Below, piece after piece: positions 1 to 47,210 of a stretch of DNA of 64,000 bases (its first letter is position 1; each line of letters starts with the position of its first letter). The notes beneath the pieces are model-generated. The model searched no databases and was not told the origin of the DNA. It saw only the letters and a program-made list of their open reading frames with translations. Position numbers and translations under genes: made by a program. The DNA is from an uncultured Christensenella sp. (GTDB taxonomy: Bacteria; Bacillota; Clostridia; Christensenellales; UBA1242), in contig CAYLWT010000001.1 of the NCBI GenBank assembly GCA_964387705.1, positions 35,874 through 99,873 on the forward strand, read 5' to 3'.

Positions 1-3000
1 CCAATTTTGCCATTGTTGTCAGTCCCGCTGCAATAAGTCATCACATTATTAACAATAAATTTGTTTTGCTCTTCATTATAATAAGCTGAATTAACTTCGA
101 GTTTTTTATTTATTGTGTCAAAAGAAGTATATGATATCGCTTCTTGCTTATCGCCAACAAAACCAACCTGCCAACTAGAAATAATTGCTTGAGAACGAGT
201 TATTGCCCAATTTTGTGTTAAGCCCGCATAAGTATAGTTCCCTCGAGATAAAGAACTATTATCATTTTCATAGTCATTTACAACTGTTACATTTGTGGTG
301 TAACTGCCTATACTTCCAATATAGTTTGTTTCGCTTCCGCTTAAAGTTGAATTGTAACTATTAATGTTGTTAAGTATAGTAAAGGAATCACCAACCTTAA
401 ACCCACCTTGAGGATAGATGACTGTCATCGTCTTGGCTGTCCCACTTAAATCTGTGGTCGTTATTTGGAACCTGATTTTGTCATCACCAACATTTTTGAA
501 CACAGGCAACACAACAAAAGTATAATTGCTCATATTTTGTATTGCATTTGTATAGTCGCCAACAATTGTATAATTGTTATTGCCACTTGTGTCTCTTTGT
601 GCATAAACCCATTTTTCAGTTTCAACTTTAAGTGGAGTTATACTCCAGTCTTTGCCTGTATTGTTGACAAGAACGTAATCCAAATTGCCAAAATAATCAT
701 AGCCACTATCATCAGTGTTGCCAGCAAGCCCACTTGCCGAACGACCAATGGACAAATCAACAAAATAATTTCCTGTGTTGCGAGGTTCTACTGTTTGTTT
801 AACTTTTTCTGCATCAAGAACGTAGGTTTCACCTTTGAGGAGCAAACTCGAAAGTTGCTCGCCATATGGAAGTGTAAGGGGTGAATTTGAAACAATTTTG
901 CCATTAAGTTTGGTTATTGACAAGTTGTAATTTTCATCTTTTACTGTTGTATCGTCCAAAGTTTCCCCACCTGTATAAATAGGGTTTATCTTGCTACGGT
1001 TATACACAAATGTGTTTTTTACCAAAGAAAGGTCAATTTGTGCTGGTTCTATTGAAACAGTATTAAACCCGAGATAACTCGTTGTGGTTCCAACCTTTTC
1101 ATCATCTATTCCACTGCCTGTAGCCGAGACTTGCACGCTTATATAACCAGAAAAGACATGTTTTAGAATAAGTTGATCGCCAACCACTTCGTCAGTTTTA
1201 TTTTGAATAAAGTTTTGTTCCGAACTACCATTAACTCTCCATTTCCATACATATGAATATGTGTAGTCTCCATTTACACTTTCAATATTAATAGAAAGTT
1301 TTATCTTCTTGCCATAATTGGTTGTAACTATGCCACCTTCTACATCGTACGTGCCTTCAACATTGTCTTCTTCATCAAGTATAACTGCCGACACAGTGAA
1401 TGCTGGGGCAGCAATGGTCCAAACTGCACGCATATTTTGTCCATAACGAATTTGTGTTTCAATTTCCCAAGAAAGATCTTCACCATTATCATTGATCAAA
1501 TATTTATATCCTTTTATGGCTTGTCCACTTTGTTCAAATCGACCCACAAAAACTGTTTCGGCCGCAGAAAGTTTTATCCTTCTTTCATCAGAAGCATCTA
1601 TATACGTGCTATAACTATCACCATACTTTGCCGTAATTTTAACCCATTTATTTTCTGAAATGCTTGTATTGTCTTGTGTTTTTGCAGTGTCAGTTGGAGT
1701 CTCAATTCCTGTTGATTTGAAAAGGTAGAAACTAAATTCGCCACCAATTTCTACCAAAGAAACTTCCCCTGCAACCCATTTTTGATTGCTATCTCCGGAA
1801 GAATTCTTGGATGTGTCTCGTGCAAACTTTTCGACGATTTCTGGATGCGTTGTTATAATTGCAATTTCTGTGTTGATATTGTTCTTGTATTTGTAAACAT
1901 CAGTGTTTGTCTTACATTCCACGACGACCAGTACTCTGCCAATGTCATCAATCAAAACATCTGCATTATTTTCTCCCTCTTTCATCGAATAAACATACAT
2001 CTCTCCAGAGATATTGCTAAGTTGTCTTATGTAAGGATATTCTCCATGCTCATCGGATTTTGAAACGTCATACAACACCACTTGCCCAACAATTTTAATA
2101 GCCGATTCACTGCCGTCAAGCCTCATCATCTCCTCTTGCCCTTTGAGGAAAATTGAACTATTTTTTCCACTAACGCCTGGATTAATTCTGTTATCTTCCA
2201 CAATCAAAGCTTTAACAATGATTGGCGAACACGAATAAATTCCAGTTCCTGCTGTGGAGTAATTGCTGGAAATTTTTGTGGCAGTTTCATTTTTTCCGCC
2301 ATCAAAGGAAACTTCTCCTCCAAGAATTGCAAGTGCACCACCATATGAATAGGACTTGTTGTTTGAAATTGTAGATTGTGTTATAACAACTTTTACACTA
2401 TCACCAGCACCTATTTTATTTTGATAAATTGCGCCACCATAGCCAAATAAGGTGTCGGTTGCAGGGTCTTTAACATTCGCCAAATTGTGTGTCAAAACTG
2501 CACCTGACTTAATTTCAAGCATGCCATAATTCGCTATTGCACCACCATTCCTTGCCATGTTGCTTTCAAGTGTTCCACCCTCAATTATCAGTGTTCCATA
2601 GTTCGAAATTGCACCGCCATCATTTATATTTTCCGAATTAGTCAAATACACACCGTTCCCAATACTAAGTTTGCCATTAGCTTCCACATAAATTGAACTT
2701 TCAGTGGCTTGCACACCCTTATTATAATTTGTAAGATTGGTGATATTTGATGGATAATTGCTACTTGAATAATTCGTAACACTCCAAACAGCTCCGCCGT
2801 CAATTGTTATTGCTCCGGAAATTGTAAGAGAACCCTCTGCGGTTACATCAATAAGTTTACTTGTAAAAGACTTTTCGGCACTTGTAAAACGAGTTATGAT
2901 AACCCCGCCAAGTTCTGCATCTCTGTTCCATTCTACATTTTTATCTTTAACTTCATAGGTTTCCGTAAGAATAATCTTTCCACCCTTAGTCAATGCTCCA

Positions 3001-6000
3001 AAAGCGGAATTCATATTTGTATGATAATAAATTTGGTTGCCACTTGTGTCCTTACTTTCCTCGCTTGTAACAGATTCAAGTGTTGTTGTAAGCGAACTAT
3101 TCACATAAAAGGTTGGTTCATCTTTTCCTTCACCTGTGCCATAATAAAGTTCCTGCGCATAAACAAACACTTCAATTTCACATGTCGCAGTGGAATATGC
3201 CGAATAAGTATTTTTATCTGGGACAAATATAACAATACATTTTTTGACACCAACTTCATTGAACAATGTGGAACTTTCACCCCATTCAAATTTTCCTATA
3301 ATTTCCACTGGATTTTTATCTTTTATCGTTGCTGAATCATAGACTTTTGCCGTGCCACCAAGATCAAGATAATTATCAAGAGTTGTTTTACTAACTGGGG
3401 TCGTTGCATTGTAATAAACGGACATACTAAGTTTTGGTTTATTCTTTTCATCAATTGAAACTTGTTTTGCTCCAATTTCAATAACCCTGCAATCATAACT
3501 GGTTGTTTTTAAGCTTTTTGTATTCTTAAATCTAAAATAAATGTATGACTTTCCAGAAAGAATTGGATTGTAGGAATCTTCCCAAATTTCGTTATTTTGC
3601 AAAATTTCATCAGAAAGGTTTCTTGTTGAACTTTGATAATATTGAATAGTGTAATTTTTTGCAACCGATTCAACCATCTTTATTGAAATCGAAATTGTGT
3701 GATATGCACCATCGTAACTTCCAATGTAATCGCTTGCAGTATAACTCACTGTTTCTGTTTCTGTTTCACTGATTCTGCTTCCAGATATCCCAAACATGAT
3801 GCGAGAAATTTCCCCCAAACGAGAACTGTAGTTCAAATCTGAATAATTTTGAGTACTTGTATTTGCAGAATAACTTGCCATAAACACATCATTGCCAAAT
3901 ATAACATCTGTGGAAATGGCATCGCTTGAAAAATATTGCAAATTCTTTGAATGTATAGAAGTTGAATTATTTGATGTTAATGAGCTGACACTTTTAACCA
4001 CCTCTACATATTTTGCGTCTCCCAAATTGTAAAAAATGCCAATTGCAGAGCCAGCATTCAAATCCCCATAAAGAGAAATTGTCTTTCCCACAGCGCTTAA
4101 AACAATGTTACGTTTGCTTCCACTTGGGTTATAATTGCCTAAAATGTATGGTGTCCCGCACAAAACAACACCCTCAGTATCTCCGCCGACTGCACCACCA
4201 ATTGTTGACGTGTTCCCAGAAATTTTTCCACCTGAAATGATAACTTTTCCACCCTTTAGGTTGATAATACTATCATCAGCCGAGTTTTCGCCGATATAAC
4301 CGCCAGCAATAGTCAAAGTTCCAGAAACATCGATTATATATTTGTTTTCGGAATTGTCCCCTATGTTGTTGTAAATTTGAGCATCGTCAGATATCACTAC
4401 ATTAACACTTCCAGGAATAAACACCACCGACTTAAAATTTTTATGACCTGTAATTTGTCCACCATAAATATTGAGTGTACTTCCGCTGTAGATTGCACCG
4501 CCTTCCTCAACCGCTTTGTTGTTTGAAATTATTCCATCATAAATATTAGTTGTTCCACCACTAAGATACAATGCCCCACCTGAGCCTGCGTAGTTTTGAT
4601 CAAACACCCCGCCATACATATTGAACTCTGTATTCGAGCCATTTACAAATATTGTGCCATTCCCTTGCCCATCGCCATTTTGCAAGAAATCTCCGCCATA
4701 AACATTAAGCTTTGTTGCTTTATCAACAAAAATTGCCGTTCCAGAATAAGTGTTGTTTGTCTGACTATTATAAACACTCGTTCCAGATTTCTTTATTTTG
4801 TTGCCCATAAATCTCGCACCATCATAAATATTAATCTCCGAGCCAAATGCAGCAATGGCACCGCCAGAAAGAGCCTGGTTCCCTTCAAAAATCCCACCAC
4901 GAATTGTGATTGTGCCTCCATTTGCACAAATTGCACCACCGAGGCCATCATAAGAACTTGATGATATGTAGTAGGTTTCATTTGCAACAAACCAACCTCC
5001 AGTCAAAAGCAGTGTTCCTTTTGAATACACCGCACCTCCAAAACTTGCAGAGTTGCTTTCAAACACACCACCCGCAATTTCAAGGGTTGTATTATCGCTT
5101 ACATACACCACTCCGCCATAGGTCCCATCATCAATAGGTTGAACGACGTTTCCTTCAAAAGTTCCACCATTTATCACAGCACTGCCATGTTCAAGGTAAA
5201 GTACAGAACCGTTTGAGGCATTATCATAAAAAGCCCCATCATTTATTTCTGTGTAAGCAGTTAAAGATGAATTCTTTGAATTTGAGTTTCTTATAACTCC
5301 ATAGATATTCCCATAGAATGCACCAGAATTTATAGTCAAATTCCCCTCATTCTTAATGGCTGAAGTCGTTTCCACATCTCGCAAGATTGTTCCGTCTTGA
5401 ATAATAAGTGTGCCATAATTTGAAATAGGGGCAGAGATAAACTCACTTGCAGATAAAACAAGCGTTCCATAATTCATTATTACATAGCTATTGTTTGATG
5501 TAATTTTAAGGTTATCTATTGTAAGTGTGCCATAGTTTTCGAACAAAATCCCAAGCCTGTCTCCCGCGTCTGTTACAAGGTCAACAATCATGTCTGAAAC
5601 ATTGACTGTAACCCCTGATTCTATTTTATAGAACACAACTGTTTTGACTTCCCCAGAAGAAGCTTCCCCAGAAGAAGCCCATTGACGTTTAACTTTAGAA
5701 ATGGTCATATCAGACTTGATAACGGTAGTCTCTGAAAAACTTACCACACTATATGATGTGTCGTCTAATTTTTTGTTTGTCCCACTCGAGATAAGTTTTG
5801 ATTTATTTTCATCTAATTTTAGTGATTCGGAGAAATTGACAAAAATGCTATTGTAATCTTTTTCTGTAAGATTTGTTGATTCCACAGTCGCAATGATCGT
5901 CCCCTCTCCTGACGTGTCAGGGGCAAGGTTTATAATAGAATTGCTTGAAATTGAGTTTAAAACAAGATTTGAATTTACTGTTTCTTCTGCGGACTCTCCA

Positions 6001-9000
6001 TTTTCTCTTGCAAGTTGCAATTTGCCCAAAATCTGAACATTTCCAGACAAAGTAAATGTAACGTCCGACACTATTTCCGTTACGCCACCAATATCTTTCT
6101 TTACTAGATTTTGATTTATTGCAATTTCATCTTCAGAGCCGGCTTGAATTAAGCTGTCTGAAATGTTAACAATCCCGCTGTAAACCCAAAGTTGTGAGCC
6201 ACAACCGCTCAATATTGTTCCATTTCCCGAATTCAAATTCCTGAAAAAGTTATTTGCAATGGTTGAATTGCTAATATTCATCGTAACTTTTGAAGTTTCT
6301 CCACCCACAATGCCTGCGGAACGGACATCCATTTCACTTGGTGAACCTTGAGCATAGTTGGAAGAAATGTAACTGCCCATAACTGTTATTTCATAGGCAA
6401 AATATACTGCCCCTCCAAATGTTGATGATGTAACATTTTCAATGCCATTGTTTACAACTTGAACATTGTTTAAAACAATATTTCTTGCATAAATTGCACT
6501 TCCATTTCCAGTCCCATTGTTATTTGCATGTTGAACAATATTCCCAACAAATTCACAATTTGTCAAAGTTGTCACATCGTCAGTCACGACTGTGCCATCA
6601 TCGTTTGTTTTCATTTCAACATACAAACCACCGCCATTTTGTGCTTTGTTATTTTCAACAGCAATCCCATTGGCAACAAATTTGTATTTCGCATAAATTC
6701 CACCACCATTTGTTGTCGCAATATTTCCTAAAATGGATATTGCACCCTCTCGGCCAAGTCCAAATGTTGAGTTGCAATTTTCAATATATAAACCGCCACC
6801 AATATAAGCATTATTATATTTTATCGTTGCTTGATAAATCTTTGAAACTTCTACAAAATATGCACCGCCACCAAGACCGCCAGTACCAGTTGTTGAATTA
6901 AACACAGCGGAGTTCGAAACAAGGTTGATGTTGCTTATCACAACACTCTCTCCCACTGCATAAATTCCTCCACCATTTTCAGCAGAGCAATTTAAAATGT
7001 CCGCATCGTATATTGTAACTTTTGCCGTTTCCGAAATATATAACCCGCCACCAAGAGTTGCAGAGCAATTTTGAATTGTTATGTCATAAATCGTAACCAC
7101 TGCGCCATCGCCAGCCAAAAGTCCGCCACCATTCCCCGTTGAATAACTATCCAAAATCTCCCCGCCATAAAGAACAAGAGTGGCACTTACAAAAACAGCC
7201 GAGCTTGTGCCGTTGTGATTTTGAATTGTTACACCATCATAAATAGAATGAGAACCTGAACTGAATTCAACTGCATTTTCAACTGTAGACCCCGTTTCCC
7301 CGGCATAATTTGCGCCATCAATTACAATTTTACCAGTCATATTTTTTGAACCTAGAGTTGTGTCTTTGAACATTGGTTGTGTAAAATCCGTTGCTCGCAC
7401 AAAGGTTACAGTCTTGTTGTCCACTGTCACCGTTTCGGTGGTTTCTATTGTGTTTTTTACATATATGATTCCACCATCGCTCATTTTGCTCAAAATGTCA
7501 GAGATTGAAGCCCCAATATAACTATCATTCCTATAAAAGCCAATTTTACTCTCAACTTGTTTATATTCAAGAACATCATAACCTTTAACTTCGACCAACA
7601 TTTCAAATTCTACTGGATCAAAAAGATTTGTGTTTTCTGGGGTGAATACAACCGTGAACACCTCATATCCTGCTGTTGTTCTTGCAATTCGAGTTTCGTC
7701 TTTCCATGTAAAAGTCCCTGCAATTGCATCTCCACCAAATTCTGCTCTCCCTTGTGAAATAGTTGCAGTGGACAGAGCATGCCCAACAAACAAACCATCA
7801 ACCACTGGAAGTTCACTGATTGTCAGTTGCCCTTGTGCCAAAAGTTGTATTGTGCTTTGTCTTGTTATTGTGTTGCTAGAACCTGTTGAAAGAGAATTAA
7901 CGATATAATATGTTCCTGCAAAAGAAGTTACTTTTTCAGTTGGGAACACAACCTCCTCAGAAAGACGAGAATCACTGTATGCACTAAATGTATATTTGTA
8001 GGAAACAGTCCCATTTGAAAATGTTTTATTCTCGCTATCATAAGAAAGTTTTTCACCATTTACGAACACTTGCATAAGACTGGCAGGAAGTGTTGAAATC
8101 GCACCACCATAATGGTTAATTGAACCCTTAAAATCGGAAGCAATAAAAATGTTTGAGTCTGATGAAATGGTTGTTGCATAAATTACTCCGTTGGAATTGC
8201 TCCCAGAATTTGAGAAACTATGTCCCAATGTAAATGACGTGCTGTCACTGCTGAAACATTCCACATCACTCGCCTTCATTGCATAAGGTTTACTGTTGCT
8301 GGCTTGGACAACAGTTTTCCCCGGATTTTTATCACTTACCCATGCAGTTGCATTTGTTGTAATCCCAATTTGAGAACCTGCTGACAAAGGCCCATTAATG
8401 TAAACTGGAGTGTTCCCAACCTCAAGATTTTTTGTTTGTCCGGTTATTAAAATTTCCCCTGAAATATTAAGGGTTGCACCATTTACAACAACTCCAGTCT
8501 CTGCCGAGCCTGAGACCTCAATGTCATGGAAATAAATTCTTCCACCATTAAGTTCCAGACCATTTTTTGAAGATTCTTTAAAAACTGTTGAATTGAACGA
8601 TACAAAAGAACTGCTACTTGATGCGTTGCCTGTGGTATAAACAAAACTTCCATTTGATTTGTAGAACTTTGAATTGAATATATCCCCACTTGCTTCCTTT
8701 GTGTTGAGATATATTGCTGCTCCATTGTTAGTCGCAGAAGTCGTTATGTCTTCTCCACCAAATGTAGAATTGCTTATTCTTATATATCCGCCACCAACAT
8801 AAATCACACCACCATTTTCAGCAGAAAAATTACCAAATTTCACGTTATCAATGTATGTCGAGCTTGAAACTGAATTTGCGGAAGTGACATAAATTGCTCC
8901 GCCATCTTTGCTTGTTTCTGAGGTTGTCCCTTCAAAACTTGCTACACTTGACGACATGTCTGAAAGACTGAGATTCCCTTGTGAATAAATTGCACCACCA

Positions 9001-12000
9001 CGAGAACCACTTGTATTGCAAACAAGTGAAATTCCAGTTGCAACCAAACTTCCCCAGTTACAAATCGCACCACCATCAGTTTCCGCAAAGTTGTCTGTAA
9101 AATAGCACTCTTCAAGAATAACCCCTGTATTTGAAGAAATGAAAATTGCACCGCCACAATCAGCCTCGTTTGAAACAAATCCAGTTTCTCCGTCCAAAAT
9201 TCTAAGAGCTTGTGTTGATGCGTAATTAATGAAAATTGCGCCACCGTTATTTGTTGCCTTGTTGCCTGTAAAAATTGTATTTTGAACAGTCAAAACCTCC
9301 GCATTTATTGCACCAGCATTGCCACTTGAAATATTTTTTGTAAATTCTGAATTTTTGACAAGCAATTCTTTTTTGGAATATACTGCGCCATTTGTTGAAA
9401 TATTCTCTATAAATTCGCAGTCATCAAGAGTAAGTTTTACATCTGCATCTTCACCAACTTTAACTGCAGAACCAATTGAACCCTTGTTGCTTTTAAATAA
9501 ACAACCTGCAACTGTGTATGAATATGAATTCCCCGTGATAAAAACACCTGCGCAATCACCTGAAACTGTGTTGTCAATAAACGAGCAATTTTGAATAATA
9601 TCATTTGAATTCGAAACTTTTAAAATTCCATTTACTGATTGAAGTTTTATTTCATTCCCTTCAAAAACGACATTCGAAACCAAATATCCCATATTATCAG
9701 CAAACTTGACGATTTCTTTTTGAAAGACATTGCCGGCAAATCTTCCGCCAGTTATAGAAAATTTGATATTTTCTCCAACAACCAGTCCATAACCATTTGT
9801 TGTAGTGGTGTAATAAATACTATTTGAAACAAACTCTACATTTTCAAGAGCAACCTCGCCATTGCCTGAAAGATACATAAGAGAACCCGATTGTGAAATG
9901 GTCGTGCCAGTAATTAATGCATCGGAAATTGTTAACGAACTATCTAAGGCATAAACAATAGCCCCTGAAATTTCTCGAGTTAATTCCACACTTTTTTTTG
10001 TGTCAATGGAATAAAAATCAACATTCGAAATTACTAAATTTGCCCCATTTGCAAGATAAATTGCTCCGCCTTGGTCCGCATAAATTGATGTAAAAGTTCC
10101 TTCACTAGCACTCACCTCAATGTCCCCATCAAGATACAATGCTCCACCTTGTGAAGATTCATCTTGTGCAGCAACATTTTCCATTTCAAAATCTTCCATT
10201 GTCACGTTTATTTTTACATCATTTTCTGCAAAAATTGCTACTGCGCCACGACTTCCCGTTAAGTAGTCCTTAATGCTAATACTCTTGACATCAATTGTGC
10301 AATTTTTGTCTGATTTTATAACCAAAACTCCAGCCTGCGTTGCAACCCCAACAACATTTTTTGCTTCAAATTCAGCTTGCAAAATTTGAACTTTTGAAAT
10401 GGAATTTATGTAAACGATTCCTTCTCCAGTTGCCGAGCAAGAAGAAAAAGTATTTCCGTCACGTTGATAAGCTTTTTTGGTTGGGTCCCCAAGGATAGTA
10501 TCTCCCGCAGAATTCACATAAAGTGCTCCGCCATTCGTTGCGGACAAGCCATCAAAAGAGCATTGTTTCGCTTGCAACAATTCCGTTTCTCCATCAAAAT
10601 ATATCGCTCCACCATTGCGCCCTGCATTTCCGCCAACAAAATTGTTTCTTTGAATCCTAAGCGATTTTTTGCTATATATTGCACCGCCATCAAAAGTCGC
10701 CGAGTTGGATACAAAACTTACTCCGTTTTCTACTTTATCTTCTTCATCTTGCTTGTCAAAAGTTGCATCTTCATCAAGGTAAATAGCACCACCATTTGAA
10801 GCATGATTGTTTTTGAACGTTACAATTGTTTCTTGAGCAAGGACAAGTCTCCCTGAAGCCATATAAATCGCCCCGCCATTGCCAGCAGTTTCATCACTTG
10901 TTCCATTCGAGTCAAAAAGTGAGTTTTCGACCGTCAAAATGCTTGACTTTCCGCTCACATAAATCGCCCCGCCATTGCCAGCAGCATTTTTACTCGAATC
11001 GCCACTTCCAGCAATGTTTCCTGTAAAAGTGCAATTGCTCAAGGAAACAACGCTGTTATTTATATATAAACCTGCACCACTTTCTCCCACGGAAGCTTTG
11101 CAATTATACACAGTGACATTTGACATTTCACAATTGCTTACATTATCCAAATAAATCCCACGCGAACAAATATCATTTTCTTCAAAGTTACCAATGTTTG
11201 AATTATAAATTTTGACAGTGGTTACATTCACCACTTTCAAGACACTGCCAGAACAACCTTTTGCGACAACCCCCTCAACATTTTCAGATGTTTCATCGCT
11301 CGCCAATACACCAAAATTTAGTTCACTAGCATTCTCAATTTCAAACGCGCTACCTCCGCCTGTTATATTTACGTTTTTGATTGTTGTTGTTGTTTTTGTT
11401 TCACGTTCTGATCCTTTTATCACGACATTCTTTGCACTTGAAGGATTGTTGATTGTTAACCCATCTATTTTAACCTCCTTTTCGTTTGTTGAAATGGACA
11501 AAACCGCACCAGAACTATTTGTAATGTTGTTACTATCAAAAGTGACATCTGAAATTGAAAGGGTTCCACCCAAACCCAAATTCAAAACATTGTCAACAGA
11601 CGCGTTTCCTGTAAAATTAACATTATTGAAAATTGGAGTCGTTTTAGTTGCATTCACAATTCTACCCACATTGTCAACAAAATTCACATTATTCAATCCA
11701 AGAACAACATTTGAAACATTAATGATGTTTGAAGCAACATTCCCTTCAAAAATCGTTTTATTTTGATCTGCATTTGAAAAAGTCAATGATTGATTCAAAA
11801 CTTCAACCAAACTTGCATTACCGGCATTATTGTTTGCAAAAGTGTTTACCCCCGAAAAAGTTACCATAGTATCACTTGCTTTGACAACAGTTCCGCCAAA
11901 ATCTTCAAATGTGCAATTTTCAAACGTAACATCAGTTGAAGATCCAATAGCAATCCCCGACACGCCTTTTGTTCCAATAAATTTACAATTTTTAAATTTA

Positions 12001-12458: not shown

Positions 12459-12681
12459 AAACCTCTTGGCAAATTAGCCTTTGAATTTGTTGACACAAAA
12501 TTGCACAATTCGACAATTCTATTACAACTATGATTATATTATATATTATGGGCCAAAAATTAACAAATATTTTGCAACAAAAAAAACAGAAAAAACAACT
12601 TTTTTATTTAAAATTTAGTTGACAAATATATTTTTGTGTATTTTTGCTTTACAAAAGTATTTTGGCGAATATCTTTCACTC

Positions 12682-12718
12682 AAAAAAATAGAAAAAATAG
12701 GCACTTTTTTGCCTATTT
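12682..12718 (-). terminator. Rho-independent terminator after the 2868-aa gene
   Basis: Minus strand: AAATAGGCA-AAAAAG-TGCCTATTT hairpin (12695-12718) followed by TTTCTATTTTTTTG. Confidence 0.6.
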
Positions 12719-12758
12719 TCCCCCAAATTTATATTGTTTTTTTATAGTTACAAAAGTC

Positions 12759-15700
12759 CTATTTTTTATAAAAAGTTTGTGATTTTTTGGACTTTACAAT
12801 TAAAATTACAAAAATTGCTATAGCAATTAACACACATATCACATTCAAAATGGTTGTCAAATTATCATTTTGAACTATTTGTTCGGAACTTTCAATTGTA
12901 TTCATTGCCTCCACTGACTCAATGGTCGAAGTTAAGACTTTTTCTCCACTTGAAAGTAAAACAGAACCTCCTTCACCTTTATACAAACCTGCTCCTTCAC
13001 CACTTGCAATATTGGACAAAATTTGTGTGTTATCAAGAACCAATTCCCCGCCGTCGGCGACACAAATTCCTCCACCATTATTTTGAGCAATATTATGAGT
13101 TATTTGACCACTTAAAAGGGTTGCCGACCCACCGTTTGCGACGTAAACTCCTGCTCCAGAGCCACTTTTATTGTTTGAGATAGTCCCACCAGATACGGTT
13201 AGTTTTCCCGCCGAATAAACAAATCCTCCATTACCATTTATTGCTTTATTGCCGTAAAATTCACCACTTAAAACGCGCATTGTTCCTTCATTATAAACCA
13301 CGCCACCAATGACATAATCACTATTTGAAGAGAACTTTAACTCGTTATCATAAATCTTGCACCCTTGCAGAATGAGCGTTCCTTTGTTGCAAATTATCCC
13401 ATGCAAGGAAGACGATGCATACGAAGTATATGTGAAATTTCTAACCTCAACATTTGCCCCAAGTGTAAGCCTACCATTGACCACAAAGAGAGGGCTCTGT
13501 GTACTGTCATCTTTACCTTCAAACAACGCTTGTCCGCCTGTGCAAGAAATCGTAAGATTTCCCCCATCATTCACTTCAATCATTGCGAAATTTATTTCAG
13601 AATTTTCTCTAACAAATTTAACTCTCTTTGAAATTGCAATAGTTTCACTTCCTTGCACAGAATAAGAGGTCTTAAAGACAAATGTTCCGTCATCATTAAG
13701 ATATTCCAGTGCCTCAGCGAACGAACTGACATTTATTTTGTTTTTACCTTCACTGTCGGCATAAATTGCAGTATCTTTTCCAACGGTCATATAATACATT
13801 TTATTATACACAACTTCAACATACATCTTGGCAGTCACATTATCTTTATTTTCATAAAGAGATGTTTGTTTTGGAGTAAATTTGCAATCATAATAACCAG
13901 AGTTTACAACGCTTTCTGGGGACAACAAACTCCACGTTCCAGCAACTTCTTGGCCATTGCTACGCTTAACCAAACCCGCTTGAGTAAGTTTGAAAGACGA
14001 TTCATTTTGAGAAATCATTTTCGCTTGAGGAGTGGAGATTATATACAAATATTCGCCCACAATTTGCACAACTATTTCGCCAGCAAGCCCATTTTTAGTA
14101 GTCTCTAAAACACTGGACTTAAGCTCCACTTCGCTTTCTCCAATTCTAATTTTTTTCACCGCGATGCCCAACGTATAACTACCCTTTGAATGCAACGTTA
14201 TGCTGTCGGTATGTTCTTCCAAAAACGAAGCTCCTTCCTTAAGACTAAATGTCATTGAAACAATGTCAACCACATTGTTGTTATTTTTAACTTCAAAATA
14301 ACTCTTATCAATTACATAACCACCTTTTGGCATATTGGAATACAAAAGTGTTATATCCGACAAAATCAAAGAATATGTATATGTATTGTCGTTTTCATCT
14401 GTTACTGAAATCATTTTACTATCTGTTGTGCTTGATTTTGAATAAGCAAGAAGTTGTTTTTTGTTTGAAGAATAACTTAAATAATATGAAGAATTGTCGT
14501 CACTGAAAAACTTTTTGATGTCATCATTTTCAAGCGGAATATTTGTATCCGTTGGCGATTGGACAACAACACTGCCTGACTGAAGTGTAACACCTATGCT
14601 ACTGCCCTCAACGAGTCCTCCTTCAAGGAAGGCTGTTCCACCAACATTTAACTTTAGGTTGAGGTTGCTTTTCGAATCACTTGTATTAGTATTGCCTGAA
14701 ATGACAACTTTTGAGCCACGAGTTATGACAATTTTGCCAGTTTCTGCTATGTAAATTGCACCATTTGAAGAACTATTCCCAGTTACAATAATTTCCCCTG
14801 AAAGACGTAAATTTACCCCATTAGAAACATAAATTGCACTGCCTGACGTTGAAACATTTCCATCTGTAAATGAAGAATCTATGATTTCAATCGAACAATC
14901 TTCATCAAGTTTATTTAATTTCAGTCCACCATTTTTTTTGTTCGAAAGAAATTTTGAATTTGCAATGATGCCATAATTTGTAGTGAGAGAAAGCCCCCCA
15001 TCTGCATTTTGATTGAAATTGCAATTTTCAACCCACACATTAGGAGCTGAAATTACAACACCACTTTCATCTCCGTCACACTTGCCATAAGAAAAATTAC
15101 TATCCAAAATTTCAGCACTTTTTGATGCCTTAACATAAAGGTGTGAGATATTTCCGCCGTTTTCTTCTCCAAATTCACAATTTGACAAAACAAATGACAC
15201 ACAATCTTCTACATACAATTTTGCTACGCCAGTTTCACTTGATTGCCCCCCGTCATCAAAAGAACTATCCTGCACCACTAATTGTCCACTGGTAAAGAGA
15301 ACCGCTCTACCATTGCCTGTTGCAGTGTTCTTTGAGAATTCGCTAGAAAGAATATTCGTTGTGCATCTTTGCAAATAAACCGCTCCGCCTGTTGTTGCAG
15401 AATTCCCGTCAAACGATAAGTAAGAAAGAGAAATTGCTCCATTCGTTGCAAATATTGCACCTCCCATTGAGGCTTTATTGCCCCTGAAAATCGTATCTCT
15501 TGCTTCAAACGAGACGCTGTCGGCATACAATCCTCCGCCTACGCCGTTCGTCACCTGTTCTTCAAATTTATTATTAGAAATTTCTGCTCCATTTATATAC
15601 AAACTGCCAATTGCATAAATTCCCGCACCAAAACTGTCGGATGAGGTTAATTTATTTTCAGAAATTATTGCACCTTGTTCAATGGTCAAAGAACTATTTT

Positions 15701-18700
15701 CCTTGGAACAAACTCCCCCACCAAACTTTGAAGCCGTATTACTTAAAATGCTCGCCCGAGAAACAGTTGTGTCTCCGAAGGAAAACACTCCGCCTCCGTT
15801 TTGTGCAGTATTATTTGAAATTATACTTTCAGAATAAGTCAAATCAATCTTAAGTTTGCCAGACACCAAAAGAGTTGCACCTTCTTGAACATAAATTGCT
15901 CCGCCATTATCTGTTGCCGTGCAGTTTGAAATCGTGCCAGCAAAAGACACATTCCCTCCATCACAAACATAAATTGCTCCGCCATTTTGAGCCTCACAAT
16001 ATGACAATGTAATGCCATCAAAAGATGCCCTGCCATATACAACAATCGCCCCTCCACCAAGAGAAGAGTTTGTGTTCTTAAGATATGAAATTGCACCACC
16101 CGAAACATTCAAGTTGCCGCCATTTCTAACCAAAATAAAGCCATTTGTGTGAGATATTTTGTTATCGTTTGTGCCATTTGCTTTAACATTATTAAGGTAA
16201 ACTACGCCCTCATCTCCAACCAAAATTGCCGTGCCATAACCAGATTTTGTTGTATCACCATTTTGAGCAAATGTGCAATCTTTAATCACAACTTCACACC
16301 CCTCAACGCTTATTACATCAGATAAGTAAGGATTTGCCTCGCTGACGTTGTTGGTGAAAGAACAATTGTCGAGCGTTCCACTGCTCAAATTTCCACTTTG
16401 CTTGGAAAATACAAGAACAGCACCTTTATTTTTGTTGCCTGTAAATGTTGAATTGTTGATTGTTATATCAACAGAACTTGTTGCTCCAACAACACCAAAC
16501 CCATTCGATATATTGCCTTCAAAGGTGACATTGCTCACTGTTAATTTGTCACTTGCAACATAATTTGATGATGCTTGAGTAAATGTTTTGAAAGAGTTGT
16601 CAAAATAAATTGTTGATGCATAATTTGCTTCATTTTTGTTGAATAATACAATATCTATTTTAAGCGGGGATTTTGCATAAATTGCACCACCAAGACCTGA
16701 CATATCGGTCATATTTTTATTTAAAACTGCTTTATTGTTTTCAAAAATTACTGCATTTTCCGCCACACCAACAATGTTAAGTGTGGAAAATTTTGCAAAC
16801 CCTTCCAAACTATCAATTGCACTGTCCGAGTATATTGCTCCGCCGTAATTTGCTTCATTTTTGATAAATGTTGCACGAACAATTTTTGTAGACATTGGAA
16901 GTGCATATGCAGTTCCACTTTGAGCATTTGGAGAATCATTTACATAATCACTATACTTGATGGTTAATTCACTATTACCAAGAGATATTGCACCACCAAA
17001 ACCAAACATTCCTTCATTTTGTGTTTGGGCAATATTTTCCTCAAATTTTGCCCCGTCAATAATTGTCACCCCACAAGCATGCACTGCACCGCCATTTTGA
17101 GCATAATTTCCTTCAAATGTCACCACAAAATCAACAGCATTCTCATTTAGGATTTCAAAGCAATTTGCTGTGTAAATTGCGCCGCCTTCACCTGTAATAA
17201 TTTCACCTTTCTTTGTTTTATTATCGCTAAAGATTACTATGCCATTTGATGTGTCGTTCGTTGTTTTGTATCCTGCAATCGTTCCCCCTGTTACAATTTG
17301 AACACACTCTCCCCAAACAGCACCGCCTTGCGAAAGGGTGGAACTTGTGGCAAAATTTTCATCAAATTTTCCACCAGAAATTATAAGTTTTGGCGAAGAA
17401 TGTTGACATTTTGTTGAATAAAGTAGAGAAGATGTGACGTTTCCATACGAACAAATTGCACCGCCTTTGGCAATCATTTCCCCACCTGCAACAGAATTTC
17501 CAGAAACATAGACATCTGTGAGTTTTAAGATTGTCTTGCACGAAAGGATTGCCCCTCCACCAACAAACAATCCCTCCCCAGAGGCAGTAACAGAATTCCC
17601 AATGAAAGTTGTATTTTTAATTTCTATTTCAGATTCAGAGCCTATGCTTGAAAGATAAACTGCGCCTCCACCAACTCCAAGATTTTTATTACCCGAAACA
17701 AAAGCTCTGTTGGATTCAAAAAGGCAATTTTGCACAATTCCCGAGCAATCTTGAATGGTCAAAGCTCCACCATTTGACATGCCATCATTATTTATAAATT
17801 CACTATTTTTTATGAGAATATCATCTTTTGAAACCACATTCTCAAGATACAAAACTCCATAATTTGCAAAATTGCTTAACGATTCATCATCTTTTTTCTG
17901 ATTGTATTTTGCAACAAAATTACTTATTGAAATGGCTGCGGACAATTCGTTTGATTTGCATTTTATTGCAAACAATGCCCCAGAACCTGTTGAAACATTT
18001 CTAACAGCATCCAAATTGTTGCCATTATTAAGGTCACCTCCAACAGTTATGTCTTCTAACACCAACTCTTCTGTCCCGTCCAAAATGAAATTTGCAACCC
18101 CATAAAGCTTTGCTTTGTTGCCCGTAAACTTTAAATTTGACATTTCTAGTTTTTTATAACCCTTTGCACTATTTGATTTAACAAGCAATGCTCCTGCAAT
18201 GGCATCTGAATTTGTACTCGTTGCCTCATTCCCATAAAAATTTGTGTTTGTTATTTCAAAATTTCCACTAAAATTGTCACCTGTGCCAACCGCACCAAAT
18301 GAAAGTCCACCCGAATAAAGTCCATTGTTTCCTTTGAATGTGCACCCGTCAAAGCAAACACCAACGCTATCTGAAGAAGTTGATTGATATAAACCTTTGA
18401 CAAGCACTGTCCCATAGCCCGAAGCAGACGAACTGTTTTTTTCAAAAGTTGTTCCACTAAATTTATAATTATATGCACCATTTGCATCAACAATCATTGC
18501 ACTGGCATATCCGTTTTCACCACGAGCATTATTTCCTTCAAACGACCCACCTTCAAATGTTACATCTTTCCCCGATAATAACCGACAATTGTCAAGATAT
18601 AGTGCTGTATCGAATATGTTGTTATCTTTAAATGTTGGATTTTTTATGTAAAGTTGATACCCTGAAATGGATACTGCATAATTTGAATATTTTGAGACAT

Positions 18701-21365
18701 TATTTGTTATTCTCTCTTTGTTGTTTGTTACATAAAGCCCTGTTGAAATGTTAAAACTCTTCCCTGACGTTGTTGTTGCGGTAAGGCTGGCCGAACCTGA
18801 GGAAGCATAGTTATTAGTCAAAATCAACTCGCTCATATCAACCTGTCCTTCACAATAAATTCCACCACCTGCACCAGTCGTTCTGCTGTTTGACACTTCA
18901 AGTTTAGTCCCCAAAATTTTTGCGTTTGACTCAACATTCAACGCACCACCATTGCTCTTTCCGTTTGCATTTTTGATGACACAATTGTTAAAAGTTGCGC
19001 TTCCCGAACCATTTACAGAAACAAAAGATTTTTCTCTTTCAACGTCTTGACCATCAAAAATAATATTCTCAAGGGTTGCCGATTCCCCAGTTGAAATTTG
19101 AAAGGCGGACGACTCTGTTATTGAAGATTGGAAAACTGTCTGATACTTAAACTCAAATGAATAATCTGTTGAAAGCTCGACCACTTCACTGAAATATAAT
19201 GTAGACATATTCCCAACCTCTAGGTCAACCCCATTTCCCGAAAGGCACCTTGCAACTTCATAACTCACTGGAGAAAATGGACTTCTGCCGGAGTTCGTAG
19301 CATAACTTGTACTTGAATTGCTCATTGTTGTGTAAATGATTGGATTTGTTATTTTGTCTGCCGAGATAAAATAGGCATTTCCCTTGAAAATTAAATAGAA
19401 AGTCAACACAAATTGCCCTTCAACATTTGACAATGTTATAGTAGAAGAGCTACCTTCCCCTCCAAGATAACTTGATGCTGGAACAAATTGTTTTGAGTAG
19501 ATGTCTGAAGAGTCTTTTATGTTTGTATAAGTTCTTATCCCTGCGACGATAAATCCTGTAACTGCAGACTTGCCATCGATGGTTATATTTGAGGCCGTAA
19601 CAGAGTATGTTTTGCCATAAGAATCATCAGAAGAGTCTTCAGGGATTTCCCCAGATTGTGTCACAGTGATGCTCCCATCAACAACACCGTCACTTTTAAT
19701 ATGCAGAAGATTTGAAGTGGAGAGATTTGCGTTTTTCACATCATAATTTTCATTTGCCTTTAATGGTTCCCCAATGTTCAATGTGTCGCCTGCATCAATA
19801 TCACCAACATTGTTTGAATTTGCAAAAGTTGAAATGTCAAGGCAAATTACCGGACGAACACCCAAAATGCTATATGCGTACGTACTATTGCTTCCTATCC
19901 AGCTTTCTACTCCTTCACTCTCAATCCTGACAATTGTGTCATGCCCAGTGTCATCAAGCAACCAACGATATTTGTCAAGAGCCCCTTGATCACCATTTGC
20001 AAGAGCATATTGGGTTTTGTATGCTGATTTAATATTGTTGCTGTCGGCATCGGCATAATCCAAAAGCCCAACCTTTTGAGTTATTGATGATGATGTTGTT
20101 CGATAGAAAGATTGCAAGTCGCTTTCATTGTTAGAAAATGCCAAATCATAAAATGTTCTATTGCTTTGATAAAAGGTATCTGTGTAGGTCGTTGAACTGA
20201 TTGAGCTTGTACTTGTAACATCTACAGAAGACTCTCCATTTAACCATGCTTTTAGCACACTGTTGTTAAAACTTTTCCCATAACTAATCAAGGCACTATA
20301 AAAAAATGTCCAAGGATTGTGGTTGATAGCATTTGAATCGATAATTTGAGTGGAAACCAACATTTTGTAATTTCCCGAAGTATCGGAGGCTTTCAAACTG
20401 GCAGAATCAACAACAACCCATTCAATTGGTTCGACTTCATAAAGGAAAATTCCATCAACACCCGTCCCCGTTTCATCGCCAACTTCATCCACTGTATCCG
20501 AACTATCTATCCCTGATGTTTGAAATCTGTCATAGCCATGCAATGCAACCACTTGATTTTTGTCTCGAACCACGCCATCATATTTGTAGTAAGTTCTGCT
20601 AAGTATCATCATTGCTGATTCGTCTCTCACCCCGTCATATGCCCTTATTGGTGCTAAATCTGGGTCTATACCTGGTTGACTGTTATTGTAAGCGTCGCTC
20701 TTGCTTGCGTCAAGCCAAATTTCTTCTCCTGAGAAGTCTGACGTTGTAGAAGAGTCTTTTTTTACTTTGTAATATTTATTCACGCTATCAACCACTCGGT
20801 TGTATGGATAAAATTTTGAGCCAGCAGAATAAGTTAGCGTTCCAACAGTGATAGGTTTTAAAAGAGTGTAATATCCGGTGCTATTGTCATAAGAAATGTC
20901 CTCATCAGCATAATCTTCCCTTGGAGCAAAATATCCTATGGTTGTGTTTCCCCATTCATAATTTTCCTTAATCTCAGTTGTTTTTCCATCCACAGTATGC
21001 GCAGTGCTGTAATATTTTTTTATCAGCGCCTCAATTTTAGTTTTGATTTCAGTGTGAATGTTTACACTGTCAGAATCAACCACATATGGGACCACTATCT
21101 CCTCAGAGCTATTTGAAGATGTTGTTAATGTGATAGTTTTCCACTCTTTCACATTAATGACAGTTGATTGAGGGTATTCACCAAAATAGACTTTGCTACC
21201 TGTGGAAAGACTTTCGACCTGCGAAACTCCTGTGCCAGAAGCAAATGCCGTTTTTCGTGGCATGCTAAGAACTGCCGACAAACAAATGCACGCCGACATT
21301 ATGCATAGTCCCACCGATTTTAAAATGGTGACTAGTTTGTTCTTTGCGGAAATTGTTTTGAACAT
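12759..21365 (-). CDS. Giant (2868 aa) secreted Pmp-repeat / beta-helix surface protein with a C-terminal transmembrane anchor
   Basis: Listed ORF, with AAAGGAG 9 nt upstream of the ATG. N-terminal signal peptide (...LSAVLSMPRKTAFA|SGTG). Dozens of GGA[ILV][YF] motifs (NGGAIYVCD, YGGAIYSDS, LGGAIYAKS, MGGAIFATN...) alternate with FxxN motifs (FTGNKA, FEGNYA, FRGNKA, FDGNSA...). The N-terminal roughly 540 aa are non-repeat and end in ...YSILGVRPVICLD. The C-terminus has a hydrophobic helix, LTTILNVICVLIAIAIFVILIV, followed by KSKKSQTFYKK. No LPXTG motif. Confidence 0.9.
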   Translation of the reverse strand: MFKTISAKNKLVTILKSVGLCIMSACICLSAVLSMPRKTAFASGTGVSQVESLSTGSKVYFGEYPQSTVINVKEWKTITLTTSSNSSEEIVVPYVVDSDSVNIHTEIKTKIEALIKKYYSTAHTVDGKTTEIKENYEWGNTTIGYFAPREDYADEDISYDNSTGYYTLLKPITVGTLTYSAGSKFYPYNRVVDSVNKYYKVKKDSSTTSDFSGEEIWLDASKSDAYNNSQPGIDPDLAPIRAYDGVRDESAMMILSRTYYKYDGVVRDKNQVVALHGYDRFQTSGIDSSDTVDEVGDETGTGVDGIFLYEVEPIEWVVVDSASLKASDTSGNYKMLVSTQIIDSNAINHNPWTFFYSALISYGKSFNNSVLKAWLNGESSVDVTSTSSISSTTYTDTFYQSNRTFYDLAFSNNESDLQSFYRTTSSSITQKVGLLDYADADSNNIKSAYKTQYALANGDQGALDKYRWLLDDTGHDTIVRIESEGVESWIGSNSTYAYSILGVRPVICLDISTFANSNNVGDIDAGDTLNIGEPLKANENYDVKNANLSTSNLLHIKSDGVVDGSITVTQSGEIPEDSSDDSYGKTYSVTASNITIDGKSAVTGFIVAGIRTYTNIKDSSDIYSKQFVPASSYLGGEGSSSTITLSNVEGQFVLTFYLIFKGNAYFISADKITNPIIYTTMSNSSTSYATNSGRSPFSPVSYEVARCLSGNGVDLEVGNMSTLYFSEVVELSTDYSFEFKYQTVFQSSITESSAFQISTGESATLENIIFDGQDVEREKSFVSVNGSGSATFNNCVIKNANGKSNGGALNVESNAKILGTKLEVSNSRTTGAGGGIYCEGQVDMSELILTNNYASSGSASLTATTTSGKSFNISTGLYVTNNKERITNNVSKYSNYAVSISGYQLYIKNPTFKDNNIFDTALYLDNCRLLSGKDVTFEGGSFEGNNARGENGYASAMIVDANGAYNYKFSGTTFEKNSSSASGYGTVLVKGLYQSTSSDSVGVCFDGCTFKGNNGLYSGGLSFGAVGTGDNFSGNFEITNTNFYGNEATSTNSDAIAGALLVKSNSAKGYKKLEMSNLKFTGNKAKLYGVANFILDGTEELVLEDITVGGDLNNGNNLDAVRNVSTGSGALFAIKCKSNELSAAISISNFVAKYNQKKDDESLSNFANYGVLYLENVVSKDDILIKNSEFINNDGMSNGGALTIQDCSGIVQNCLFESNRAFVSGNKNLGVGGGAVYLSSIGSESEIEIKNTTFIGNSVTASGEGLFVGGGAILSCKTILKLTDVYVSGNSVAGGEMIAKGGAICSYGNVTSSLLYSTKCQHSSPKLIISGGKFDENFATSSTLSQGGAVWGECVQIVTGGTIAGYKTTNDTSNGIVIFSDNKTKKGEIITGEGGAIYTANCFEILNENAVDFVVTFEGNYAQNGGAVHACGVTIIDGAKFEENIAQTQNEGMFGFGGAISLGNSELTIKYSDYVNDSPNAQSGTAYALPMSTKIVRATFIKNEANYGGAIYSDSAIDSLEGFAKFSTLNIVGVAENAVIFENNKAVLNKNMTDMSGLGGAIYAKSPLKIDIVLFNKNEANYASTIYFDNSFKTFTQASSNYVASDKLTVSNVTFEGNISNGFGVVGATSSVDITINNSTFTGNKNKGAVLVFSKQSGNLSSGTLDNCSFTNNVSEANPYLSDVISVEGCEVVIKDCTFAQNGDTTKSGYGTAILVGDEGVVYLNNVKANGTNDNKISHTNGFILVRNGGNLNVSGGAISYLKNTNSSLGGGAIVVYGRASFDGITLSYCEAQNGGAIYVCDGGNVSFAGTISNCTATDNGGAIYVQEGATLLVSGKLKIDLTYSESIISNNTAQNGGGVFSFGDTTVSRASILSNTASKFGGGVCSKENSSLTIEQGAIISENKLTSSDSFGAGIYAIGSLYINGAEISNNKFEEQVTNGVGGGLYADSVSFEARDTIFRGNKASMGGAIFATNGAISLSYLSFDGNSATTGGAVYLQRCTTNILSSEFSKNTATGNGRAVLFTSGQLVVQDSSFDDGGQSSETGVAKLYVEDCVSFVLSNCEFGEENGGNISHLYVKASKSAEILDSNFSYGKCDGDESGVVISAPNVWVENCNFNQNADGGLSLTTNYGIIANSKFLSNKKNGGLKLNKLDEDCSIEIIDSSFTDGNVSTSGSAIYVSNGVNLRLSGEIIVTGNSSSNGAIYIAETGKIVITRGSKVVISGNTNTSDSKSNLNLKLNVGGTAFLEGGLVEGSSIGVTLQSGSVVVQSPTDTNIPLENDDIKKFFSDDNSSYYLSYSSNKKQLLAYSKSSTTDSKMISVTDENDNTYTYSLILSDITLLYSNMPKGGYVIDKSYFEVKNNNNVVDIVSMTFSLKEGASFLEEHTDSITLHSKGSYTLGIAVKKIRIGESEVELKSSVLETTKNGLAGEIVVQIVGEYLYIISTPQAKMISQNESSFKLTQAGLVKRSNGQEVAGTWSLLSPESVVNSGYYDCKFTPKQTSLYENKDNVTAKMYVEVVYNKMYYMTVGKDTAIYADSEGKNKINVSSFAEALEYLNDDGTFVFKTSYSVQGSETIAISKRVKFVRENSEINFAMIEVNDGGNLTISCTGGQALFEGKDDSTQSPLFVVNGRLTLGANVEVRNFTYTSYASSSLHGIICNKGTLILQGCKIYDNELKFSSNSDYVIGGVVYNEGTMRVLSGEFYGNKAINGNGGFVYSAGKLTVSGGTISNNKSGSGAGVYVANGGSATLLSGQITHNIAQNNGGGICVADGGELVLDNTQILSNIASGEGAGLYKGEGGSVLLSSGEKVLTSTIESVEAMNTIESSEQIVQNDNLTTILNVICVLIAIAIFVILIVKSKKSQTFYKK

Positions 21366-25714: not shown

Positions 25715-25757
25715 TTTTTCTCCCTTTGCAAAAAACTCCACATGGGAGTTTTGCTAT

Positions 25758-41488: not shown

Positions 41489-41535
41489 TTAATTCTTCTC
41501 CTTTATTTTTATAATATATATAGTAGCGTTTTCAT

Positions 41536-41890: not shown

Positions 41891-41941
41891 GTTGCTTAAT
41901 TTTAAAAATTCGACAAATTCCATACAACAAATCAAATTTTT

Positions 41942-43291: not shown

Positions 43292-43315
43292 ACGCACCCC
43301 CAAAAATACATTATA

Positions 43316-44831: not shown

Positions 44832-45158
44832 AAATTTATTTTAACATATTTTGAGAAATTTTAAAATATTTTTCAACTATTTTCAAAATTTTTAATATGT
44901 TTGCTTTAAATTTATATATTATCAAAAATTTTAAGTAGTTAAAAGATTTGCTTGCTTTTTTAAAATTATAAAAGAGAGGAATTTTTTTTGTTTTTTTTAA
45001 GCCTTGTTGCTATACAATTTTTGTTTACAATAGTAGTAAGATAAGTAATTTTGTTTAAAAAGATTTTTAAAAAAATTTTTCAAAAAAAGTTATTTTTGTG
45101 GTTGTTTTTTTATATTATATATGTTATATTATATATATAATGTATTATGTATATATAA

Positions 45159-47210
<2,052 letters not shown>

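Follow-up and report, generated by a model that had tools for sequence, protein, structure and literature searches.

A conserved pair of giant Pmp-repeat beta-helix proteins with predicted transmembrane anchors in Christensenellales gut bacteria

Two adjacent, co-oriented giant genes, here called A and B, lie in a 64,000-nucleotide stretch of DNA from an uncultured Christensenella sp. (GenBank assembly GCA_964387705.1, contig CAYLWT010000001.1, positions 35,874 to 99,873), which we analysed as a whole and refer to as the window. Their products carry repeats of the polymorphic membrane protein (Pmp) type, and we consider it probable that both are Sec-exported, type I membrane-anchored fibrillar surface proteins of monoderm Christensenellales, most likely adhesins. 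The surface biology of Christensenellales, a heritable and health-associated group of gut bacteria, is almost unexplored.

The pair had been described in a first-pass annotation of the window, and both genes were found as given there. Gene B (12759–21365; all coordinates of A and B are on the minus strand) is a complete open reading frame (ORF) of 2868 amino acids (aa), with an ATG start codon and an AAGGAG ribosome-binding site 8 nt upstream. Of gene A (3–12458) the window holds the N-terminal ~4150 aa, as a frame without a stop codon that extends from 12473 to the first position of the window and runs off there; A thus measures at least 4150 aa. Its likely start is ATG 12452 (MRNLNRKF), which was also picked by the gene callers in two related loci (L001 and L004), or ATG 12458. 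Given a terminator-like hairpin just 3' of the B stop codon (12690–12723; a 14-pair stem followed by a T-run) and a promoter-like site upstream of A (TTGTTA-17-TATAAT, 12538–12566, from a consensus scan only), the two genes probably form separate transcription units.

The motifs that define the repeats are far more frequent than chance would allow. There are 26 instances of GGA[ILV] in A and 17 in B, where composition alone predicts 0.65 and 0.42, and the counts of FxxN are 39 and 32 (15 and 10 expected); none of 500 residue shuffles reached these numbers. Pairs in which FxxN stands 5–25 residues ahead of GG[AG][ILV] number 12 in A and 11 in B, compared with at most two in any of the 500 shuffles, and the motifs are spaced 25–32 aa apart (medians 27–31), which is about one beta-helix rung. 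Hidden Markov models gave matches above the curated cut-offs, as the earlier Pmp/beta-helix reading had predicted. A tile of A (residues 420–660, 241 aa) matched Chlam_PMP (PF02415) in four stretches with 51.6 bits (E 4e-14, cut-off 20.6) and Beta_helix with 31.0 bits (cut-off 25.9), and A matched POMP_repeat (TIGR01376) in 8 stretches with 25.2 bits (cut-off 15); scored as a whole, A stayed below the cut-offs for Chlam_PMP (17.9 bits against 20.6) and Beta_helix (20.1 bits against 25.9). B scored 26.9 bits for Beta_helix (PF13229, cut-off 25.9) and 15.3 bits in 4 stretches for POMP_repeat (cut-off 15). Of the models specific to Pmp repeats, PF02415 thus passes its cut-off on the A tile and TIGR01376 on A and, marginally, on B. 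Judged on these scores, the assignment to the Pmp/beta-helix families is sound for A; for B it is consistent, if marginal.

Both proteins begin with what reads as a signal peptide, in agreement with the first-pass annotation: a basic N-region and a hydrophobic core are followed by AYA/SQ in A (residues 1–42, 12333–12458; hydrophobic segment 10–36) and by AFA/SG in B (residues 1–42, 21240–21365; core 11–36), the latter region being conserved in the orthologues. At ~42 aa these regions are unusually long and also unusually conserved: over the 3200 residues aligned between the A orthologues (46–60% identity), few invariant stretches are as long as VVCSSLLGVVA and LSPNFFAR. Such long, conserved signal peptides may reflect specialised targeting or slow cleavage, as in other very large exported proteins. 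A conserved lipobox within them was considered and rejected.

For B, the motif map and a structural model bear out the domain order originally proposed. The signal peptide is followed by a non-repeat head (residues 43–510, 19836–21239), a beta-rich spacer (~511–770, 19056–19835) whose predicted strands have a predicted local distance difference test (pLDDT) score of 60–80, and a long right-handed beta-helix of ~50 rungs carrying the GGA[ILV]/FxxN motifs (~771–2285, 14511–19055, approximate boundaries from the motif map), within which Beta_helix matches residues 1973–2137 and whose start and end were modelled at pLDDT 70–90. Next come a non-repeat, immunoglobulin (Ig)-like beta-sandwich middle (~2286–2535, 13761–14510), a second, short beta-helix of ~10 rungs (~2536–2808, 12942–13760) and, at the C-terminus, a single transmembrane (TM) helix (2835–2857) with the tail KSKKSQTFYKK (residues 2835–2868, 12762–12863). 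Neither the spacer nor the Ig-like middle has a Pfam match, and the same holds for the other non-repeat parts of A and B that were tested as tiles.

An AlphaFold2 model of B residues 2150–2868, built with seven orthologues (mean pLDDT 79, predicted template modelling score 0.62), shows in this order the last part of the long beta-helix, a region that is all-beta (model residues 137–386, pLDDT 70–90), the second beta-helix (modelled at B ~2556–2804, pLDDT ~90), a low-confidence linker and one alpha-helix (2835–2857, model residues 686–708) that coincides with the hydrophobic C-terminal segment. When this model was compared with the Protein Data Bank (PDB) using Foldseek, the best match was the beta-helix domain of the Acinetobacter baumannii cell-surface protein RbtA (9cdv, E 4.6e-4), so that the structural check, too, returned beta-helix proteins as the closest folds. 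Further matches comprised the TibA passenger, tapirin, pectate lyases, polygalacturonases, a PL6 alginate lyase and phage tailspikes, the sandwich region matched Ig- and fibronectin type III (FN3)-type proteins, and one match was the S-layer protein SbsB. The TM-scores of these matches are low because the model holds several domains.

Nine full-length orthologues of B were identified (98%, 57–58% and 41–42% identity; one named Christensenellales bacterium), and all nine keep the TM helix and tail, which in B are preceded by the conserved juxtamembrane motif STIESVEA; the window B has no database entry of its own. A Kyte-Doolittle scan found only two hydrophobic segments in B, residues 11–36 and 2834–2862, and the same layout, one N-terminal and one C-terminal segment per complete protein, applies to A when the C-terminal one is taken from an orthologue. 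Pfam gave no match to the autotransporter barrel (PF03797) in B, LPXTG was absent from B and its nine orthologues, and B contains no PEP, PGF or GlyGly sorting motif. The described ending of B, a single hydrophobic helix plus KSKKSQTFYKK with neither barrel nor LPXTG, hence holds; the label 'tail anchor' given to it does not, since a protein with an N-terminal signal peptide would carry a type I (stop-transfer) anchor. As a separate observation, residues ~2809–2834 (12864–12941) contain an invariant STI(E/Q)S(V/I)E..N within the otherwise low-confidence linker.

The B head is a candidate binding domain. In one orthologue (P0008), residues 354–529 match DUF6273 (PF19789) with 27.8 bits (cut-off 23.5) over profile positions 4–171 of 172, and in the family alignment this stretch corresponds to B ~308–510 (19836–20444), with invariant FGEYPQ, PIEW, WLN and GVRPVIC columns. 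P0008 was the only one of the seven aligned B-family heads scanned to match, and the head of the window B gave no match at E<=1. By orthology, the window protein is thus a putative member of this family. DUF6273 has been described as C-type-lectin-like and as serving receptor binding in phage proteins (PMC10743442). A PDB sequence search with a profile of the B head returned no matches, nor did one with a helix tile of A.

Within the window, A comprises four beta-helix modules, whose approximate boundaries come from the motif map: module 1 with its Pmp repeats (residues ~100–1390, 8289–12161, also supported by Pfam tiles) and, in the region ~1651–3450 (2109–7508), modules at ~1651–2150, ~2301–2800 and ~3131–3450, set apart by non-repeat beta-rich regions. 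The remainder (~3451–4152, 3–2108) is a beta-rich, non-helix region without a Pfam match, in which a stalk appears to begin; a HMMER search with residues 3450–4152 against 1.84 billion representative proteins gave one weak match only. The first ~3200 aa of the window A are colinear with orthologues of 8775 aa (L002, 60% identity) and 8736 aa (L004, 46% identity), and the window therefore holds less than half of A. The open frame of more than 4150 aa noted earlier stands, and the full protein would measure ~8.7–8.8 thousand aa, its second half consisting of beta-rich repeats of ~90–100 aa.

We reached the C-terminus of A by walking through orthologous loci. A single-sequence genome scan gave no matches; a subsequent alignment-based scan of GTDB genomes yielded seven loci (L005–L011), including Christensenella sp. 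UBA7862 and metagenome-assembled genomes (MAGs) of gut Clostridia, and a metagenome scan with their far ends added two more (L012 and L013), both of which contain the A stop codon. L006 and L012 share an 11.3-kb overlap with one mismatch and were merged into a full A orthologue of 8765 aa. It ends in ...VLRFTVLPPDGQHTLVIVAIVLGVLALAGVAIGISVRIARRNMRKNIQKQQMRRIKKELKSLSKRENNNDKNIR, with one TM helix (8701–8730) followed by a ~35-aa basic tail, and the orthologue in L013 ends in the same way. The last 1473 aa have no Pfam match at all, and so none to the PF03797 barrel; the possibility raised at the outset, that the truncated gene might end in an autotransporter barrel, was accordingly not borne out by its orthologues. 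The second half of the protein contains two families of divergent ~90–100-aa repeats (aa ~4400–5600 and ~6400–7850) that are 25–50% identical. A resemblance of these repeats to MBG/YDG-type domains was not confirmed by Pfam or NCBIfam, and we do not claim it.

Several further observations concern the A orthologues. Their ~35-aa Lys/Arg-rich, predicted cytoplasmic tail is conserved (L012, 17700–17920), and this tail or the juxtamembrane motif of B could serve in processing, in contact with the wall or in docking on the cytoplasmic side. LPPDG stands three residues before the TM helix; it was rejected as a sortase motif, having Asp in place of the Thr of LPXTG and belonging to the F-x-[IV]-x-P with which the repeat unit before it regularly closes. 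A toxin or contact-dependent inhibition (CDI)-type C-terminus was likewise considered and rejected. In L012, the 3 kb that follow the stop codon (17924–20993) have no listed ORF of >=60 aa on the gene strand; this is either a long non-coding stretch or a long gene running off the locus end, as such ORFs are unlisted. Two more distant relatives, from a goat caecum Clostridia MAG (L010) and a 'Bacillales' MAG (L011), are 30–43% identical over part of the A query and each lie in an open frame of >5100–6800 aa that runs off both locus ends, which indicates that similar giant proteins exist in other gut Firmicutes.

A protein search with the first 900 aa of A retrieved distant Pmp proteins only, and all 30 of these distant homologues carry PF02415 and/or PF13229. 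Archaeal proteins from Methanomicrobiales (P0015) and Methanobrevibacter (P0019) were among the best matches, and one homologue is an autotransporter (P0044). Pmp repeats outside diderm autotransporters are consequently less of an oddity than the first-pass annotation implied. Parallel-beta-helix proteins of methanogens are known as adhesin-like proteins and are thought to mediate microbe-microbe binding (PMC7883539); together with the archaeal homologues, this means that Pmp beta-helices in cells without an outer membrane are already known. Neither protein search (first 900 aa; aa 3450–4152) retrieved the ~8.7-thousand-aa A orthologues, and proteins of this size may therefore be under-counted in surveys.

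Internal near-identical DNA repeats had been proposed to support recombination-driven length variation. A 27-mer encoding ...NGGAIY is indeed present exactly twice, at 10862 and 10958 (0–1 mismatch), but the other repeat copies in the A/B region are 65–97% identical over at most 29–52 nt, the longest near-identical repeat in A/B measures 27–29 nt, and the genes contain no tandem DNA arrays. At the protein level, internal repeats are 25–35% identical, as are tiles of the A modules when compared with each other or with B. Since the stalk repeats are only 25–50% identical and near-identical DNA repeats are lacking, length switching is unlikely; the repeat structure lends no support to it, and A and B do not have the near-identical tandem domain DNA of 'periscope'-type length-variable proteins.

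We also compared the window with the 98% strain, whose contig (L001) ends inside A. The housekeeping neighbours are 99–100% identical at the protein level, compared with 97.9% for B and 97.3% for the A N-terminus, so that A and B diverge 3–5 times faster than their neighbours, and the ratio of nonsynonymous to synonymous substitution rates (dN/dS) is 0.42 for B and 0.48 for A. Indels are few, one of them being a 16-codon rung duplication in B. Judging from this dN/dS range of 0.4–0.5, the fast divergence and the small indels, A and B are functional, fast-evolving surface proteins. The duplicated rung, seen at ~14000–14300 of L001 (~1365–1400 of its B orthologue P0001) against ~1360–1385 of the window B, is a tandem 16-residue copy (TNDTSNDIVIFSNDKT / TSDTPNGIVIFSNNKT); two small indels occur beyond it, and it is the only length polymorphism seen. 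Small length changes do occur, then; frequent switching of length by recombination is not favoured by the architecture.

Taken together, we propose that each protein would be exported through Sec by its long N-terminal signal peptide until translocation halts at the single C-terminal hydrophobic helix, leaving the short basic tail in the cytoplasm in a type I topology. The exported part of B would form a rigid rod, comprising the ~470-aa head with its putative DUF6273/C-type-lectin-like domain, the spacer, the ~1500-aa beta-helix and the Ig-like region, with the second short beta-helix adjoining the membrane. In A, as judged from the orthologues, four distal beta-helix modules would be carried on a stalk of ~4500 aa of divergent ~90–100-aa beta-rich repeats. 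The putative binding surfaces, that is, the B head and the distal A beta-helices, would in this way be held far from the membrane, where they could bind glycans, host material or other cells. Assuming 0.48 nm per ~27-aa rung and 3.5–4 nm per ~95-aa domain, we estimate that the rods are perhaps ~45–60 nm (B) and 200–300 nm (A) long.

In this proposal, Sec export, the topology, the rod lengths and the adhesive role are inferred, and what we show directly are the genes, their motifs, the repeat families, the beta-helix/beta-sandwich/TM architecture of B, the TM end of the A orthologues and the conserved synteny. Several points weigh against it. The C-terminus of the window A lies outside the window and is taken from orthologues of ~46–60% identity, and aa 2793–8765 of the A orthologue, its second half included, have no Pfam or NCBIfam match. 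The window B head itself lacks a Pfam match, and its AlphaFold2 model (residues 43–800, pLDDT 55.8) was unusable for a fold search. Finally, a structural role in the envelope would likewise be in keeping with how strictly the pair is conserved, near the replication origin, throughout an order.

This last point leads to the most serious alternative, namely that A and B are structural components of the envelope, such as an S-layer-like proteinaceous coat or a spacer on a thin-walled, Gram-negative-staining monoderm, a reading that we find less likely and that nonetheless carries some weight. The pair is fixed beside housekeeping genes of the origin from 98% down to 42% identity, purifying selection acts on it (dN/dS 0.4–0.5) and SbsB was among the structural matches. 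Christensenella minuta, moreover, stains Gram-negative, and a 'Gram-negative cell wall structure' is ascribed to it, although lpxABCD, lptA, ompH and bamA are reported to be missing from its genome (PMC11448272). However, Pfam and NCBIfam scans revealed neither S-layer homology nor a wall-binding domain (SLH, CWB2 or similar), S-layer proteins are normally lattice-forming and of 40–200 kDa as opposed to rods of ~0.3–0.9 MDa with a TM anchor, and a lectin-like head would suit ligand binding better.

It seems improbable that the C-terminal TM helix and basic tail form a sorting signal that is cleaved by a sortase-, exosortase- or rhombosortase-like enzyme for wall attachment or release. A conserved motif followed by a TM helix and a basic cluster does resemble known signals, the juxtamembrane motif STI(E/Q)S(V/I)E of B is invariant, RbtA, which gave the best structural match, carries the name of a rhombosortase target, and the A orthologues carry LPPDG before the TM helix. 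Nevertheless, B lacks LPXTG, PEP, PGF and GlyGly, LPPDG is without the near-invariant Thr and is an ordinary repeat-unit end, the ~35-aa conserved tail of A is longer than typical sorting-signal tails, and no sorting enzyme is encoded within the window. We regard it as very improbable that the proteins are surface-tethered carbohydrate-active enzymes, with beta-helices of the pectate-lyase or polysaccharide-lyase kind serving glycan foraging: the PF13229 family and the matches to pectate lyases, polygalacturonases and PL6 alginate lyase would fit, but the profile scans gave only the generic Beta_helix and Pmp repeat models and no catalytic family, the structural matches are weak (TM-score 0.1–0.2), and proteins with several long Pmp-motif helices are typically adhesins, not enzymes. 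The Pmp-type repeats, the passenger-like beta-helix fold and the autotransporter among the distant A homologues would fit a diderm host with a conventional pair of type V autotransporters; this reading is refuted for B and can practically be dismissed overall, as B ends in one TM helix without a barrel, the A orthologues end alike with no PF03797 in their last 1473 aa, and the lineage is Christensenellales, with C. minuta reported to be devoid of bamA, ompH and lpx/lpt (PMC11448272).

We therefore return to membrane-anchored fibrillar adhesins as the preferred reading, which is also in line with the host. The lineage belongs to the Bacillota, class Clostridia, and the relatives of the locus come from Christensenellales/Clostridia gut MAGs, which supports the monoderm Firmicute host suggested by the first-pass annotation. 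As neither bamA nor lipopolysaccharide genes are reported in C. minuta, an autotransporter pathway is not expected, and a TM anchor makes sense. Of the neighbours named in support of such a host, DegV, Jag and YabP (a sporulation family) were confirmed in the window; the yabQ candidate (50329–50814, plus strand), which follows yabP, has no Pfam match.

The neighbourhood of the pair is conserved as well. In every locus compared, down to 42% identity, the gene order is ParB, FtsH, two unknowns, signal peptidase S26, DegV, HU, B and A. The two genes between FtsH and the S26 signal peptidase (24365–25741 and 25758–26390, minus strand) have no Pfam match; they encode a Cys-rich repeat protein of 458 aa, the N-terminus of which (...AIFVGGCSH) resembles that of a lipoprotein, and a 210-aa protein with one N-terminal TM segment, and both are syntenic in all related loci, the former with only 280 aa in L002. 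The minus strand of the window further carries recF-like, dnaA, dnaN, rnpA, yidD, yidC, jag, mnmE, mnmG, rsmG, parA, parB and ftsH genes. Five DnaA-box-like sites, two of them perfect (TTATCCACA), lie at 41622–41890 in the dnaA-dnaN intergenic region (41489–41941), and the cumulative GC skew has its minimum near 44 kb (turn at 44000–45000). The DnaA-box cluster and the GC-skew minimum together place the replication origin of the chromosome inside the window; the two giant genes, 20–45 kb away from it, point in the direction of replication.

The usual gene order at the origin is dnaA-dnaN-recF-gyrB. In the window, the RecF-like gene (43740–44831; SMC_N match only), dnaA (41942–43303) and dnaN (40382–41488) share the minus strand, and two divergent ORFs of 679 and 856 aa (45171–49865, plus strand) occupy the place expected of gyrB and gyrA and are candidates for these genes by size and position; this arrangement departs from the usual one. 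Additional ORFs without a Pfam match are found at 39136–40080 (minus strand), 60251–61024 and 61956–63227 (both plus strand).

What is new here, in our view, is the conserved B-A pair, the full architecture of a ~8.7–8.8-thousand-aa protein, and the occurrence of both in an understudied, health-associated gut order. With masses of ~0.3 and ~0.9 MDa, this conserved pair probably dominates the cell's outward surface. A and B are speculative candidates for flocculation, for co-aggregation with methanogens and for binding to host or mucus. A more specific idea, which we hold to be doubtful, is that the pair constitutes the aggregation machinery of Christensenellales, responsible for floc formation and for the capture of hydrogen-consuming Methanobrevibacter via the B head or the distal Pmp helices of A. 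Christensenella species have been described to form flocs both by themselves and with M. smithii, which they trap, in a paper that does not name an adhesin (PMC7002349). The presence of Methanobrevibacter and Methanomicrobiales proteins among the best distant matches of A, and the conservation of the pair across the order, are compatible with this idea.

How A and B relate to known systems can be told from their parts. Chlamydial Pmps share with them the alternation of FxxN and GGA[ILV] at one-rung spacing, the beta-helix rod and the Sec signal peptide. Unlike chlamydial Pmps, A and B are anchored by one TM helix in place of a C-terminal autotransporter barrel, are 3 to 9 times larger, contain additional, putatively lectin-like and Ig-like modules and belong to a lineage without a reported outer membrane; Pfam scans of A, B and their tiles did not report the Pmp middle domain (ChlamPMP_M) that chlamydial Pmps possess. 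The repeats of A and B are genuine Pmp repeats, but the proteins, having neither barrel nor middle domain and coming from a lineage with no reported outer membrane, are not Pmp-type autotransporters. The occurrence of Pmp-type beta-helices on a plain TM helix in a monoderm shows the Pmp repeat to be a module for building rods in general and not specific to autotransporters. The adhesin-like proteins of methanogens resemble A and B in combining Pmp and Beta_helix repeats, in a gut habitat, on cells without an outer membrane; compared with A they are only 24–27% identical over part of the helix, are ~1–1.5 thousand aa long, and have other anchoring and accessory domains (Big, CARDB and others).

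A long right-handed beta-helix rod with a distant binding site is also found in Fusobacterium Fap2 and in TibA and EtpA of Escherichia coli, TibA being one of the structural matches, and Fap2 and EtpA are described as beta-helical adhesins. These proteins cross the outer membrane by type V or two-partner secretion, whereas export of A and B would proceed by Sec with a stop-transfer anchor in a monoderm. RbtA (Rhombotarget A of A. baumannii, 9CDV), the best solved structural match, is like B a cell-surface protein with a beta-helix domain; with 617 aa, a diderm host, 15% identity and a TM-score of 0.17–0.25, it shares the fold with B and gives no sign of common descent. Giant Gram-positive adhesins such as Ebh and SasG have a signal peptide, a long beta-rich repeat stalk, a distal binding region and a C-terminal anchor, which is the plan we propose for A and B. 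Unlike in Ebh and SasG, the stalk repeats of our pair are 25–50% identical and free of near-identical DNA repeats, a TM helix takes the place of LPXTG, and the distal part is a beta-helix.

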